Source of the DNA: Escherichia phage teqdroes
Length of the DNA stretch: 64,000 nt
Sequence record: NC_054932.1
Strand: one strand, 5' to 3'
The position numbers and the translations under genes were made by a program. The number at the start of each line of letters is the position of its first letter. The stretch's first letter is position 1. The notes below the pieces were generated by a model. The model was not told where the DNA came from, did not search any database, and saw only the letters and a list, made by a program, of their open reading frames with translations. Below are positions 2,481-63,687 of the stretch, piece by piece.

Positions 2481-3449
2481 ATGAAAACTGTAACTATCAA
2501 TAAGGGTATCTACTTCGGTAAAGAAATCTCTGGAACTTTTGAGCTCTTAGGCGAATGGTTCCCAGATAATGCTCCGGTAGATGCACAAGGAGATGGTAAA
2601 GTTTTTGTTGAAATTGACGGTAAACGTCGCGGTGTTTGGGTTTACAAATCAGACATTTCATATGATGGTGTAAAAGTTGAAGAAGTTAAAGAATCGTATG
2701 AAGATATGAAAACCCGCATTAATAAAAGATTTAATGTTATGGGAATGATGACGAATGGTATTATTAATGGAAACATTCGTTCATTAATTATCTCGGGAGC
2801 AGCAGGTATTGGTAAAACGTATTCTTTAGATAAAGCTTTAAATAAAGCAAATGATATTGGATACATTGAGTATAAAAGCATTAATGGTAAAATCTCTGGT
2901 ATCGGTCTTTATGAACAGCTTTGGAATAATCGTGAAGAGAATTCTGTCCTTTTGATTGATGATGTGGATGTTTTCTCTGATATGGACATTCTTAATCTTC
3001 TGAAAGCTGCTCTGGACACTGGAGAAACCCGTAAAGTCTGCTGGAGCACTGCATCTTCTTACTTAGAAGAAAAAGGCATTGAGCGCGAGTTTGAATTTAA
3101 AGGAACGATTGTTTTTATCACAAACGTTGACATTGACCGCGAATTAGACCGTGGTACTAAACTTGCTCCACATTTACAAGCATTAGTGTCCCGCTCAGTT
3201 TATTTGGATTTGGGTGTTCACACTAATGAAGAAATTATGGTCAGGGTTGAAGATGTTATTCTTTCAACTGACATGATGCAAAAGCGCGGTCTTTCTGATG
3301 AAGAAACTTATAAAGCATTATCATGGATGAAAGTCAATGTTAATCGTTTACGCAATGTTTCACTGCGTACTGCGCTTTATCTTGCTGACTTTATTATGAC
3401 CGACAAAAACGGTTGGGAAGAAATCGCTGAGGTTACTCTTCTGAAATAA
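2481..3449 (+). CDS. P-loop NTPase (Walker A and B), 322 aa
   Basis: SGAAGIGKT Walker A and LLIDDVD Walker B; position matches T4 nrdC.10. Confidence 0.65.
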   Translation: MKTVTINKGIYFGKEISGTFELLGEWFPDNAPVDAQGDGKVFVEIDGKRRGVWVYKSDISYDGVKVEEVKESYEDMKTRINKRFNVMGMMTNGIINGNIRSLIISGAAGIGKTYSLDKALNKANDIGYIEYKSINGKISGIGLYEQLWNNREENSVLLIDDVDVFSDMDILNLLKAALDTGETRKVCWSTASSYLEEKGIEREFEFKGTIVFITNVDIDRELDRGTKLAPHLQALVSRSVYLDLGVHTNEEIMVRVEDVILSTDMMQKRGLSDEETYKALSWMKVNVNRLRNVSLRTALYLADFIMTDKNGWEEIAEVTLLK

Positions 3450-4493: not shown

Positions 4494-4901
4494 ATGAAAC
4501 AGTTGATAATTAAAAGATTGAATTTATTGATATGTTGTTTATGCGTAGTAGTTGCATATAGTTATTACGCAATTAATGATTATATGCATTATAAAGATTA
4601 TGATGTTACTGTAGTTAATACCTTTACAGGAACTCAAGGAAAGGGGTCTAGTTTATCGTTTATTGCTGTATATGAACTCAAAGACGGTTATAGATTTAGC
4701 GAATATATTTCACCAGAGATGTATTCATCAATAGAAAAAGGCGATAATATTACTGTAAGTTTACGTCCTTTCGACGTAAAACAGACATTGTTTGATAATA
4801 TTGTTTGGTTCTTTGGAATGGTATTAGTTCAATCTGTGTGTGGTGCTTATATAGTCTGTTCCATCTTATTCTGTATATTTAGTAAAATTGAAATTGAGTG
4901 A
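4494..4901 (+). CDS. hypothetical membrane protein, 135 aa
   Basis: ORF track; hydrophobic N- and C-terminal segments. Confidence 0.5.
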   Translation: MKQLIIKRLNLLICCLCVVVAYSYYAINDYMHYKDYDVTVVNTFTGTQGKGSSLSFIAVYELKDGYRFSEYISPEMYSSIEKGDNITVSLRPFDVKQTLFDNIVWFFGMVLVQSVCGAYIVCSILFCIFSKIEIE

Positions 4902-11085: not shown

Positions 11086-11126
11086 AAATAATAAATACCC
11101 TTATCTATTTAAGGTAAGGGTTTATT

Positions 11127-11600
11127 ATGTTATTGACTGGCAAATTATATAAAGAAGAAAAACAGAAATTTTATGATGCGCAAAACGGTAAATGCTTAAT
11201 TTGCCAACGAGAACTAAATCCTGATGTTCAAGCTAATCACCTCGATCATGACCATGAATTAAATGGACCAAAAGCAGGAAAGGTACGTGGATTGCTTTGT
11301 AATCTCTGCAATGCTGCAGAAGGTCAAATGAAGCACAAATTTAATCGTTCTGGCTTAAAGGGACAAGGTGTTGATTATCTTGAATGGTTAGAAAATTTAC
11401 TTACTTATTTAAAATCCGATTACACCCAAAATAATATTCACCCTAACTTTGTTGGAGATAAATCAAAGGAATTTTCTCGTTTAGGAAAAGAGGAAATGAT
11501 GGCCGAGATGCTTCAAAGAGGATTTGAATATAATGAATCTGACACCAAAACACAGTTAATAGCTTCATTTAAGAAGCAGCTTAGAAAGAGTTTAAAATGA
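11127..11600 (+). CDS. 49: endonuclease VII (Holliday junction resolvase)
   Basis: 157 aa; zinc-binding CLICQ and HLDHDH motifs; matches T4 gp49 as recalled. Confidence 0.9.
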   Translation: MLLTGKLYKEEKQKFYDAQNGKCLICQRELNPDVQANHLDHDHELNGPKAGKVRGLLCNLCNAAEGQMKHKFNRSGLKGQGVDYLEWLENLLTYLKSDYTQNNIHPNFVGDKSKEFSRLGKEEMMAEMLQRGFEYNESDTKTQLIASFKKQLRKSLK

Positions 11601-17490: not shown

Positions 17491-17808
17491 ATGACTGATA
17501 AACCCGAAATTAATGATGAAGTGGAAAAGCTTATTTCTTCTATTGAAGAAAAGAACCGTCTTGAAGCAGAAAGAAAAGCAAATAAGTTATTGTCTAAAAA
17601 CAAACGCGAACTGAATCGTCTTTATAAGCACGCTCAGATTGCAGCTGAAAACAATAATTTTGCTCAATACGAATATGCTATCAAGAAAAGTCGGGATATT
17701 CTAAAACAGCCATATAACGATGAACTCATCAGTATTCTTTGGAAGACTACTAGATCGCAAATTGAGGATATGATTGATGCTTACACACGTAAAATTCAAG
17801 CGTCTTAA
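17491..17808 (+). CDS. hypothetical coiled-coil protein, 105 aa
   Basis: ORF track. Confidence 0.5.
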   Translation: MTDKPEINDEVEKLISSIEEKNRLEAERKANKLLSKNKRELNRLYKHAQIAAENNNFAQYEYAIKKSRDILKQPYNDELISILWKTTRSQIEDMIDAYTRKIQAS

Positions 17809-17980
17809 AATTAATGCAGGATTTACTGAATCTTTGAATGGTCATCTTTGTGTGAAAATTTCTGAAAAAGAATACCATGATAGTTCAATTAAAGAAGTTA
17901 ATCCTCCTATTGTAAGAGCAGACCCTAATATGAAAGTGTGGGTTGATTCTTATCAAGTCAAAAAATGGTGGCAGTTATGA
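17774..17980 (+). CDS. hypothetical protein, 68 aa
   Basis: ORF track. Confidence 0.45.
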   Translation: MMLTHVKFKRLKINAGFTESLNGHLCVKISEKEYHDSSIKEVNPPIVRADPNMKVWVDSYQVKKWWQL

Positions 17981-36952: not shown

Positions 36953-37981
36953 ATGTCATCAATACCTTGGATTGATAATGAGTTTGCATACCGTGCATTA
37001 GCTCATTTACCTAAATTCACACAAGTAAATAATAGTTCAACTTTTAAATTGCGGTTTAGATGTCCAGTTTGTGGAGATTCAAAAACCGACCAGAATAAAG
37101 CTCGTGGATGGTATTATGGTGATAATAATGAAGGAAATATTCATTGTTATAACTGTAATTATCATGCACCAATCGGAATATATTTAAAGGAGTTTGAACC
37201 TGATTTATATCGTGAGTATATCTTTGAAATAAGAAAAGAAAAAGGTAAAAGTCGTCCAGTAGAAAAACCTAAAGAACTTCCTAAGCAACCTGAGAAGAAA
37301 ATAATTAAATCTCTTCCGTCATGTGTTAGATTAGATAAACTGGCGGAAGACCATCCAATTATAAAATATGTAAAAGCTCGTTGTATTCCAAAGGATAAAT
37401 GGAAATATCTTTGGTTTACAACCGAATGGCCTAAATTAGTTAATAGCATAGCACCGGGAACATATAAAAAGGAAATACCTGAGCCTCGTCTTGTTATTCC
37501 AATTTATAATGCTAATGGAAAAGCTGAGTCTTTTCAAGGACGTGCATTAAAGAAAGATGCTCCCCAAAAATATATCACCATCAAAGCTTATCCTGAAGCA
37601 ACAAAAATTTACGGTGTTGAACGAGTTAAAGATGGTGATGTATATGTTCTAGAAGGACCCATCGATTCACTTTTTATTGAAAATGGTATAGCTATTACAG
37701 GTGGTCAATTAGACCTAGAAGTTGTTCCATTTAAAGATAGACGAGTGTGGGTTTTAGATAATGAACCTCGTCACCCTGACACTATCAAACGAATGACTAA
37801 ATTAGTTGATGCAGGAGAAAGGGTTATGTTTTGGGATAAATCTCCCTGGAAATCAAAAGATGTCAATGATATGATTAGAAAGGAAGGTGCAACCCCTGAA
37901 CAAATTATGGAATATATGAAAAATAATATTACCCAGGGGTTGATGGCTAAAATGCGGCTATCTAAATATGCTAAGATTTAA
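36953..37981 (+). CDS. 61: DNA primase gp61
   Basis: 342 aa; zinc ribbon CPVCGDS...CYNC and TOPRIM region. Confidence 0.92.
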   Translation: MSSIPWIDNEFAYRALAHLPKFTQVNNSSTFKLRFRCPVCGDSKTDQNKARGWYYGDNNEGNIHCYNCNYHAPIGIYLKEFEPDLYREYIFEIRKEKGKSRPVEKPKELPKQPEKKIIKSLPSCVRLDKLAEDHPIIKYVKARCIPKDKWKYLWFTTEWPKLVNSIAPGTYKKEIPEPRLVIPIYNANGKAESFQGRALKKDAPQKYITIKAYPEATKIYGVERVKDGDVYVLEGPIDSLFIENGIAITGGQLDLEVVPFKDRRVWVLDNEPRHPDTIKRMTKLVDAGERVMFWDKSPWKSKDVNDMIRKEGATPEQIMEYMKNNITQGLMAKMRLSKYAKI

Positions 37982-38178
37982 ATCAACCCAACTAAAGCAA
38001 ATGCTAAATCTACAAATGTATCAAGAGTAACTACTGGAATATTAACACCATGAGCAATAGCAATTGGTGATAAAACAAAATTCCAGAGTAAAATTCCTAT
38101 CATAGCAGAAATAGTAAAAGCTATACGTTTTTTATTACCTTTTATGGCATTAACAAGTGCCATTAATTTTTGTACCAT
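37978..38178 (-). CDS. antisense small membrane protein, 66 aa
   Basis: ORF track; AAGGAGG 4 nt before ATG on minus strand; two hydrophobic helices. Confidence 0.4.
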   Translation of the reverse strand: MVQKLMALVNAIKGNKKRIAFTISAMIGILLWNFVLSPIAIAHGVNIPVVTLDTFVDLAFALVGLI

Positions 38179-38190
38179 GTGTCCTCCTTA

Positions 38191-38215
38191 TTGCTTTATA
38201 TATTTATTGTATAAT
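38191..38215 (+). promoter_or_regulatory. MotA-dependent middle promoter for gene 56
   Basis: MotA box TTGCTTTA, 11 bp, TATAAT. Confidence 0.5.
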
Positions 38216-38249
38216 TAATCTACTAACCCATGAATTGAAAGGAAAAATA

Positions 38250-38768
38250 ATGGCATACTTTAATGAATGTTCACAACTGATTGAAGGCGCTGATAAAGCT
38301 CAAAATGAATACTGGGATATTCTCGGTGATGAAAAAGACCCGCTGCAGGTTATGCTTGATATGCAGAAATCTTTGCAGGTTCGTTTAGCTAAAGATAAAC
38401 CTGAATATAACCGTCATCCTGATGATTTGGCTACTGCCGGTGAAGTTGTTGATTGGCTACGTAATCAGAAAGACTATATTGATGATGAATTCCGTGAACT
38501 TCTGACTTCTCTTGGTGGTATGAGCAATGGCGAAAAAGATGCATCTGCTGTATGGAAACCTTGGAAGTCGCAACATGGTGAACGCCGTGAAACTCTGATT
38601 ACTGATTTGTCTCCGCAAGACCAGCTGGAAATTAAATTTGAAATGATTGATATTCTTCATTTCGTTCTGAATATGTTCCAAGGTCTTGGTCTTACTGCTG
38701 AAGAAATCTTTAAACTTTATTATCTGAAAAATGCAGAAAATTTCGCACGTCAAGACAGAGGTTATTAA
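38250..38768 (+). CDS. 56: dCTP pyrophosphatase gp56 (MazG-like)
   Basis: 172 aa from internal ATG; the ORF-track start at 38157 lies inside the promoter. Confidence 0.85.
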   Translation: MAYFNECSQLIEGADKAQNEYWDILGDEKDPLQVMLDMQKSLQVRLAKDKPEYNRHPDDLATAGEVVDWLRNQKDYIDDEFRELLTSLGGMSNGEKDASAVWKPWKSQHGERRETLITDLSPQDQLEIKFEMIDILHFVLNMFQGLGLTAEEIFKLYYLKNAENFARQDRGY

Positions 38769-39175
38769 TGGCTCGTTTAAATAAACGCCAGCTTAAGAAA
38801 GCCCGCAAGAAACGTATTGACCAGCTATTTAAAGATTATGACAAGGGGCTCGTATGTGAGCTCTTAACTAATCAGCTTCGTATGGTTGATTGGGTTGTAA
38901 AAGAAGGTCCTGACGAAATTTTTGTCAGTGAAGAAGCCTTAAAAATTAATTATAGAGCATTCAAAATGAAATTTGATTTTTATGCATGGCAAAAAGCCGG
39001 GAGACCGGCTAGTAGAGCATTTGGTTCTGATGGATATAATATTAGAGCCCATTGGAAATTTAATGCTCCAGAAGATTATTCTCCGGTAATTATTAACGGT
39101 GATGTTGTTATATTAACTAAAATTGGGTATTTTAACGTTCCGCGAGAATTTATTATAAATAGTCATGTAATTTAA
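38768..39175 (+). CDS. hypothetical protein with basic N-terminus, 135 aa
   Basis: ORF track; N-terminus MARLNKRQLKKARKKR. Confidence 0.55.
   Translation: MARLNKRQLKKARKKRIDQLFKDYDKGLVCELLTNQLRMVDWVVKEGPDEIFVSEEALKINYRAFKMKFDFYAWQKAGRPASRAFGSDGYNIRAHWKFNAPEDYSPVIINGDVVILTKIGYFNVPREFIINSHVI
39154..39161 (+). promoter_or_regulatory. late promoter TATAAATA for soc
   Basis: Exact TATAAATA about 30 nt upstream of the soc ATG. Confidence 0.6.
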
Positions 39176-63030: not shown

Positions 63031-63687
63031 TTATTTAGCCCTTCCTAATATTCTGGCCGCCTGAGCACATATTGATTCAAGGCGGTCATTACTTATATGA
63101 TCATTTCTATACCAGTACATGGTTATCGTTCCAGCATAGATATTATCCAAATTAAAATATGGACAACTGTACATGTAGTTTATTTCGGGAGTAGGCTTTT
63201 TAGTTGGTAAAAAAGCAAATTTTGAGTCAGAATAATAATGACGTCCATTTAAATGAACTGTATATTCATCCATAGTTTTATCAACAGGATATCCTCCAAG
63301 TGATTTTTCAGTTATTGTTGAAGGTAATCTTCCTTCGTATGCTATAATATCAACAAAATAGTTTAAGTTTTTAGGGCGGAAAGAATACACCGCACTAAAG
63401 TCTGCCTCAGATGATATATGAACTATCTGGAGTTGTTCCAGGGCGACAGATTCAAAGCGTGCATTTCTTTCCTTTTCAATAATTTCACTGTATGTTTCAT
63501 ACTTTGATTGCTTATAGTACTCAAAGAAACTATCTCCCCTATACCAAACAATCGCCATCATAAATAAAAGAATTACGACAGCTACCCGGGAAGCAAGAAC
63601 CTTCCCAGTAGCGTTATCTTTGAACAAGCGATCTAGAACACCAAACAGAATATCAGAGGGCGAAAATGATATTCTAGGTGCTGCCAT
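63031..63687 (-). CDS. t: holin T
   Basis: 218 aa; MAAPRISFSPSDILFGVLDRLFKDNATGKVLASRVAVVILLF matches T4 holin. Confidence 0.92.
   Translation of the reverse strand: MAAPRISFSPSDILFGVLDRLFKDNATGKVLASRVAVVILLFMMAIVWYRGDSFFEYYKQSKYETYSEIIEKERNARFESVALEQLQIVHISSEADFSAVYSFRPKNLNYFVDIIAYEGRLPSTITEKSLGGYPVDKTMDEYTVHLNGRHYYSDSKFAFLPTKKPTPEINYMYSCPYFNLDNIYAGTITMYWYRNDHISNDRLESICAQAARILGRAK

Follow-up and report, generated by a model that had tools for sequence, protein, structure and literature searches.

A conserved gene between genes 61 and 56 of T-even phages, probably expressed late and encoding a small membrane protein

The stretch analyzed here, called the window throughout, comprises 64,000 nucleotides of Escherichia phage teqdroes (NC_054932.1), a Tequatrovirus of the RB32/RB51/wV7 type. 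On its minus strand, between genes 61 and 56, lies an open reading frame (ORF) for 66 amino acids, and the 801 bases around it are 97-98% identical to those of many such phages. Taken as a whole, the best explanation of the locus, and one we consider likely, is that this ORF is a genuine protein-coding gene of T-even phages, transcribed late and encoding a small inner-membrane protein. The locus contains the following features:

37978..38178, minus strand: coding sequence of a 66-residue small membrane protein of family PHROG 2024 (ORF list, PHROG match, annotated RB51 orthologue, and ratio of nonsynonymous to synonymous substitution rates, dN/dS)
38183..38189, minus strand: Shine-Dalgarno (SD) sequence AAGGAGG, separated by ACAC (4 nt) from the ATG at 38178-38176 (read from the sequence)
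38201..38208, minus strand: late-promoter-like box AATAAATA, a variant of TATAAATA with A at -13, located 22 nt upstream of the ATG (motif scan)
38190..38215, plus strand: MotA-dependent middle promoter of gene 56 (read from the sequence; the record of phage SA20RB also shows a middle promoter at this site)
36953..37981, plus strand: gene 61, DNA primase, the flanking gene convergent with the ORF
38250..38768, plus strand: gene 56, dCTPase/dUTPase, the flanking gene divergent from the ORF
38144..38163, plus (early) strand: terminator-like hairpin and T run inside codons 6-12 of the ORF (consensus scan; annotated as a terminator in SA20RB)

The product of the ORF (37978..38178, minus strand) is a 66-residue protein, MVQKLMALVNAIKGNKKRIAFTISAMIGILLWNFVLSPIAIAHGVNIPVVTLDTFVDLAFALVGLI. 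The stop codons of gene 61 and of the ORF overlap by 4 nt, and the gap from the end of gene 61 (37981) to the start of gene 56 (38250) is 268 bp. When this gap is shuffled, an ORF of at least 60 amino acids appears in 55 of 5000 cases (1.1%). An original prediction made from the letters of the window had described a 66-residue minus-strand frame with AAGGAGG four nucleotides before its ATG, and both the ORF list and a reading of the sequence agree with it. It had also set the 5' end of the frame beside the MotA promoter of gene 56 in a divergent arrangement, which is what is found: the MotA box ATTGCTTTA (38190-38198) is followed on the plus strand by an 11-nt spacer and then by TATAAT (38210-38215), and this spacer is the complement of the ORF's late box. 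The near-total bias toward the plus strand is just as it was described, with 75 ATG-initiated ORFs of at least 90 amino acids on the plus strand and 8 on the minus strand. The holin gene t is the sole recognizable gene among these eight minus-strand ORFs of the window.

Other Tequatrovirus copies differ from that of the window 2-5 times at the first codon position, never at the second, and 6-9 times at the third, giving a dN/dS of 0.09-0.17. In comparisons with Mosigvirus (RB69) and Gaprivervirus (TH40, RZ), about 42% of nucleotide sites differ, and the frame remains open with 48-55% amino acid identity; dN/dS between genera is 0.13-0.34, with dS saturated. The ratio of the proportions of nonsynonymous and synonymous differences (pN/pS) for the ORF frame is the lowest among all six frames, or at most 0.02 above the lowest. 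A tblastn search finds the ORF in 691 phage records, near full length in 685. About 501 records hold a copy at least 80% identical, and 500 hold a gp61 at least 95% identical; because these figures match, essentially every Tequatrovirus carries the ORF. The sole interrupted copy read, that of ECCR664, is frameshifted by one base (excerpt 1495-1692); the 134-kb record is incomplete, and the shift is probably a sequencing error. The ORF stays intact while its neighbors vary: in T4 it is separated from gene 56 by dam, in T2 by dam together with another ORF, and in phage RZ a homing endonuclease lies between the ORF and gene 61. Codon-level selection and conservation in six genera thus bear out the original proposal of a genuine small membrane-protein gene. 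Conservation in relatives holds as well, the frame being open in Tequatrovirus, Mosigvirus, and Gaprivervirus, with homologues in Dhaka-, Gelderland-, and Jiaodavirus. The frame is maintained by purifying selection, together with a strong ribosome-binding site and at one map position, in six genera of the Tevenvirinae.

The protein matches the PHROG 2024 profile with E = 3.5e-31 over residues 2-66, and this family is matched by all nine sequences tested, from six genera. The map position, convergent with gene 61 and upstream of gene 56, is the same in the window, RB51, T4, T2, RB69, Gaprivervirus, JS98, S16, and KEN39. Proteins of the family have 63-69 residues and share the core motif W-N-x4-P-x5-G-x3-P, with W32, N33, P38, G44, and P48 invariant in the cross-genus alignment. 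The distant homologues were found by reading the 61-56 gap in other genera:

JS98 (Dhakavirus), minus strand: 66 amino acids, unannotated in record EF469154 (locus excerpt 2226-2426)
S16 (Gelderlandvirus), minus strand: 69 amino acids, annotated as gp16.1
KEN39 (Jiaodavirus), minus strand: 63 amino acids, annotated as hypothetical
VR25 (Gaprivervirus), minus strand: two tandem copies of 65 and 66 amino acids (locus excerpt 2229-2429 and 2438-2635)

The ORFs of these four phages have just 20-27% identity to the window protein, yet all belong to PHROG 2024. A single-sequence search and an exhaustive hidden Markov model (HMM) search (1.8 billion representatives, 6 matches) pointed to a tiny family, and a scan of IMG/VR gave only 7 loci. 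A profile search returned 118 clusters, in which every organism-named match is a T4-like phage or an enterobacterial assembly. The hosts of the named phages are Escherichia, Shigella, Klebsiella, Salmonella, Citrobacter, and Yersinia, and the labels are all “hypothetical,” save for a few evident mislabels. At the 61-56 position, there is no copy in Karamvirus EnA02 or in Krischvirus KFS-EC. The equivalent position in EnA02 is taken instead by a plus-strand ORF of 94 amino acids (excerpt 2223-2507). Apart from the family of the protein itself, Foldseek against viral models found two weak matches only (E = 0.058 and 0.28), both to uncharacterized phage proteins of 63 residues; the first of these, at 30% identity, comes from Enterobacter phage CIP9. 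Pfam and Rfam gave no match, and NCBIfam and PDB-sequence searches gave insignificant ones only (best E = 0.025 and 0.032, respectively).

Of the tandem paralogues of VR25, one belongs to the T4 type and the other to the JS98 type. Different deletions have wrecked the second copy in TH40 and TH57 (excerpt 1693-1850), and the homing endonuclease of RZ occupies the same site, so that a second copy looks dispensable given the first.

The gene is not new, since it is annotated as RB32ORF030w / RB69ORF029w, and it is already catalogued, without a function, as PHROG 2024. The records of RB51, RB14, and RB32 annotate it as RB32ORF030w, “similar to RB69ORF029w,” and the RB51 copy is 97% identical to the window protein. 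RB69ORF029w is listed with one transmembrane segment (residues 21-41) and no signal peptide (Nolan et al., 2006; PMC1524935 supplement). In the T4 record NC_000866 the ORF is intact at 17,738-17,938 (locus excerpt 3239-3439, plus strand) and 94-95% identical, and it lies unannotated in a 309-bp “gap” between dam and gene 61. Full-text searches gave no mention of the ORF and no relevant T4 ribosome profiling or proteogenomic reannotation. What is added here is the probable late class, the spread through the Tevenvirinae, and the fact that the T4 and JS98 records leave the gene out.

In phages of the T4 type, early and middle genes run in one direction, and late transcripts are of either polarity (PMC2988020). 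Late promoters of T4 have TATAAATA at positions -13 to -6; among 50 listed sites, 32 are perfect and nine have A at -13, the commonest variant (PMC2988020). In relatives, the -13 base is A or T (Nolan et al., 2006; PMC1524935). Ahead of the ORF, six of the seven lineages examined have a NATAAATA box, at a distance of 12-22 nt from the ATG. Its -13 base is G in T4 and T2, A in RB69 and JS98, and C in Gaprivervirus and KEN39, and the T4 box reads GATAAATA. Farther upstream, several of these phages (the window, T4, T2, and RB69) have unrelated sequences: the late box and the SD sequence are all that is shared, and all lineages examined retain the GGAG(G) core of the latter ahead of the ATG. Downstream of the box comes TATAAAGCAAT, with A or T at nine of 11 positions, which fits the published AT-rich criterion (PMC2988020). 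The window contains TATAAATA twice against 10.3 expected, and VATAAATA five times against 29.4 ± 6.0 expected. NATAAATA is likewise strongly depleted, with 7 sites against about 40 expected:

11090, 38201, 39154, 47573, 60941, 63559, 63705: NATAAATA sites in the window (motif scan)

Four of these seven sites lie 17-30 nt upstream of a start codon with a strong SD sequence, namely those of soc, of the holin gene t, of gene 49 (endonuclease VII), and of the ORF. The gene 49 box in the window is AATAAATA, identical in T4. The late motif is thus a simple late-promoter detector for such genomes. Because a box precedes the ORF, recurs despite unrelated flanks, and belongs to a motif that is otherwise avoided, we read the ORF as a late gene, and its expression is probably late. 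The transcript is predicted to start near 38195, with a leader of about 17 nt. RNA polymerase with gp55 (plus gp33 and the gp45 clamp) would initiate from the AATAAATA box, about 17 nt upstream of the ATG. The resulting short-leader mRNA, made in the clockwise “late” direction, would then run antisense into gene 61, because the stop codons of the two genes overlap. This mechanism of a late start is drawn from the sequence together with published promoter rules. The original prediction had stressed an oddly oriented gene in an early region, and this framing finds no support: the ORF has the orientation of T4 late genes, with a conserved late box and a strong SD sequence before it.

At gene 49 (11090-11130, plus strand), AATAAATA is followed by a CCCTTA...TAAGGG hairpin that ends beside the start codon, and this too is identical in T4 (excerpt 4856-4900, minus strand). 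The arrangement looks like that of gene e, with late transcripts starting inside the hairpin that masks the ribosome-binding site.

The protein itself can be divided as follows:

Residues 1-18: N-terminus, with five K/R and no acidic residue; AlphaFold helix 2-12
Residues ~19-42: transmembrane helix, with a 19-residue Kyte-Doolittle mean of 2.0; AlphaFold helix 16-42; holds the invariant W32-N33 and P38
Residues 43-48: loop, HG...P
Residues 49-66: C-terminal segment, with D53 and D57 and no basic residue; AlphaFold helix 52-65

The two hydrophobic helices of the original prediction fare differently. The first (residues ~19-42, mean 2.0) is a firm transmembrane segment. The second contains D53 and D57, its AlphaFold helix of 14 residues is too short to cross the bilayer, and it is weak in S16 and KEN39: the hydropathy of residues 47-66 is 1.86 in the T4 type and 1.04-1.08 in these two. 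The C-terminal 24 residues include no K/R and two Asp, and end in LAFALVGLI. The AlphaFold model has a mean predicted local distance difference test (pLDDT) score of 72.5. Judging from composition and the model, the 66-residue product would insert into the inner membrane such that the basic N-terminus, including the amphipathic helix 2-12, stays in the cytoplasm. A transmembrane helix at about 16-42 would lead to a short periplasmic loop and then to an acidic, hydrophobic C-terminal helix dipping into the outer leaflet or lying on it. The positive-inside rule predicts that the N-terminus is inside, and we favor an N-in/C-out arrangement with an interfacial tail. The only cross-genus invariants, W32, N33, P38, G44, and P48, cluster in the loop and the outer half of the transmembrane helix. 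Buried Asn residues classically drive association between helices, and the invariant Asn in the transmembrane helix suggests such an association here. On account of this buried, invariant Asn, our guess is that the protein acts by binding to itself or to a partner membrane protein.

Several points weigh against the overall explanation. Full-text searches yielded no transcript, ribosome-occupancy, or protein data for the ORF in any phage. A published HMM scan for late promoters in RB69 lists no site before RB69ORF029w, and the -13 base of the box is G in T4 and T2 or C in Gaprivervirus and Jiaodavirus. S16 alone deviates from the box altogether, having ATTAAATA in its place. As to the protein, the AlphaFold model was built on six sequences and has moderate confidence, and the C-terminal segment could be a second span, forming a hairpin with the C-terminus inside.

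Other structures at the locus were considered as well. The hairpin at 38144-38163 may end gene 61 transcripts; its folding is not significant when compared to shuffled sequences (z = -1.68), and we do not retain it as a supported early-strand terminator. A late-strand terminator hairpin downstream of the ORF is likewise unsupported (z = -0.06). A 23-nt inverted repeat (38148-38170 / 38243-38265, 78% complementary) could pair the 5' region of the ORF with the ribosome site of gene 56 in read-through RNA. The notion that this repeat masks the gene 56 start was dropped (z = -1.05), and the RB69 equivalent (z = +1.59) has no comparably stable structure. The window has no dam methyltransferase gene between 61 and 56, unlike T4 and T2, and no segF between 56 and soc. 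Between gene 56 and soc there is a 135-residue ORF (38768-39175, plus strand), with end-to-end matches to PHROGs 5782 and then 5773. SA20RB has two separate small ORFs in this interval, and the 135-residue ORF of the window may be a fusion of both.

If the conservation were non-coding, residing in a gene 61 terminator, the gene 56 promoter, or a late antisense RNA to gene 61, then the ORF would be incidental. The hairpin within the ORF, which resembles a terminator, and the adjacent middle promoter speak for this, as does the necessarily antisense course of a late transcript into gene 61. It is nevertheless extremely improbable, given that substitutions are codon-periodic, with zero second-position changes within the genus, that the frame survives about 42% nucleotide divergence, that the protein motifs are kept in six genera, and that the hairpins fold like shuffles (z = -1.68, -0.06, and -1.05) and match nothing in Rfam. 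An antisense role could coexist with coding. It also seems very unlikely that the ORF encodes an early or constitutive immunity, exclusion, or toxin-like factor read from a host-type promoter instead of the late box. The ORF does lie within the early-gene region, there are weak sigma-70-like matches on the minus strand inside gene 56, and early transcripts of gene 61 would be antisense to the ORF in a way that recalls type I toxin control. However, these promoter-like matches number 7, compared to 4.8 ± 2.5 in shuffled sequence, which is no excess, and the upstream sequences of the window, T4, T2, and RB69 are unrelated apart from the late box and the SD sequence. Sigma-70-type promoters for the ORF, in no excess over shuffles and unconserved, were therefore rejected.

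Other alternatives accept a protein and read it in a different way. It could be a secreted precursor, in which the N-terminal 42 residues are a Sec signal peptide, cut at a conserved P-x-A-x-A (AIA/HG) to free a hydrophobic, acidic periplasmic peptide of about 24 residues. The basic n-region and the helix-breaking Pro at -5 are in keeping with secretion, as is the fact that five of six sequences have small residues at positions -3 and -1 (A-I-A, A-V-A, A-L-T, A-A-S, A-L-A, and A-S-A). The hydrophobic core of about 24 residues, on the other hand, is far above the h-region of cleaved signal peptides (about 7-15 residues), W32 and N33 within it are invariant across genera, which would be unusual if the segment served targeting alone, the -3 residue of RB69 is L, and the published SignalP result for RB69ORF029w is negative. 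We thus give secretion little chance. A holin, a pinholin, or an antiholin-type lysis regulator, as the original prediction had suggested, is unlikely. The protein is small, probably late, and membrane-embedded, with the at least one transmembrane domain of a holin (~19-42) and a second hydrophobic segment in which D53 and D57 are one helical turn apart. The polar Asn in the transmembrane helix could drive oligomerization, and one UniRef/BFVD entry names a close homologue “Holin.” However, that name comes without evidence and the PHROG 2024 family has other mislabels; the Foldseek “Holin” match is such an unverified label on the protein's own family. No holin family of Pfam, NCBIfam, or PHROG is matched, the second segment is weakly hydrophobic in S16 and KEN39, and the window already has T4 holin t at 63031-63687 behind a perfect TATAAATA. 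Holins have a charged hydrophilic tail, whereas here the C-terminus is hydrophobic, with no K/R in four of six sequences and a single K in S16 and KEN39. RI-type antiholins combine an N-terminal signal-arrest-release (SAR) or signal-anchor segment with a periplasmic globular domain that binds the holin, and the roughly 24 residues after the transmembrane segment are too few for an RI-like domain. The holin- or antiholin-like suggestion therefore does not stand, as the protein has neither a charged C-terminal domain nor a periplasmic globular one, matches no holin HMM, and occurs alongside holin T. Membership among the holins was rejected for want of a charged tail and of similarity to any holin family, and membership among RI-type antiholins because one short helix within about 24 residues, without a globular domain, follows the transmembrane segment.

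As to what a late inner-membrane protein of this kind might do, we can only speculate. Our best guess, held with low confidence, is an accessory role linked to the envelope, exerted late through contacts between transmembrane segments, whether in lysis timing, lysis inhibition, or superinfection exclusion. A more specific version, which we put forward as a doubtful possibility, is that a universally conserved late protein of 63-69 residues, overlooked both by classical genetics and in the T4 reference annotation, uses its invariant Trp-Asn transmembrane motif to bind envelope machinery, for example to modulate holin T and lysis inhibition as a third such factor or to serve as a late factor of superinfection exclusion.

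As a sequence feature the ORF is ordinary. Its modest value lies in the fact that T4 is the best-studied virulent phage, yet the ORF is absent from NC_000866, so that read counts or peptide matching restricted to that annotation would miss the gene. In the stranded T4 RNA-seq dataset GSE111808, taken at 5 min and 37 °C, reads were counted on NCBI gene definitions only (PMC6024815). Shotgun proteomics would probably miss the product too, as its sole convenient tryptic peptide is LMALVNAIK and the remainder is a hydrophobic fragment of 48 residues. Since the ORF is in essentially every Tequatrovirus and is kept across the Tevenvirinae under purifying selection, it likely matters for fitness, and it makes a cheap knockout target for lysis, lysis inhibition, or exclusion.

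Among known systems, RB69ORF029w / RB32ORF030w is the same gene as the ORF in family, size, and position, with a single transmembrane segment predicted for the RB69 copy; these records carry no function or expression class. The T4 late genes that lie among early genes (soc, 49, e, and t) have a TATAAATA-type box 17-30 nt before a start with a strong SD sequence, as does the ORF, and gene 49 shares the AATAAATA variant with it, in both the window and T4. From T4 work, soc, 49, and t are transcribed late, and gene e is documented in the literature, whereas for the ORF we infer late transcription. No RBS-sequestering hairpin of the gene e type (RBS, ribosome-binding site) is seen upstream of the ORF, by reading of the sequence and not by folding. 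The phage 21 S68 pinholin, of class II, has about 70 residues and two transmembrane segments. Class II holins and pinholins such as S68 resemble the ORF product in length, in two hydrophobic segments, and in late expression, which is probable for the ORF. There is no sequence or HMM similarity between S68 and the ORF product, however, and the charge of the latter is N-terminal, not C-terminal; its second segment, short and acidic, shows weak hydrophobicity in some genera, and the phage has its own holin T. T4 Imm, which confers superinfection immunity, is an early protein, and RI, which acts in lysis inhibition, consists of an SAR anchor and a periplasmic domain of about 70 residues. Neither has detectable homology to the ORF product, in which just about 24 residues follow the transmembrane segment, but like the predicted product they are small envelope proteins anchored in the inner membrane and restricted to T-even relatives.

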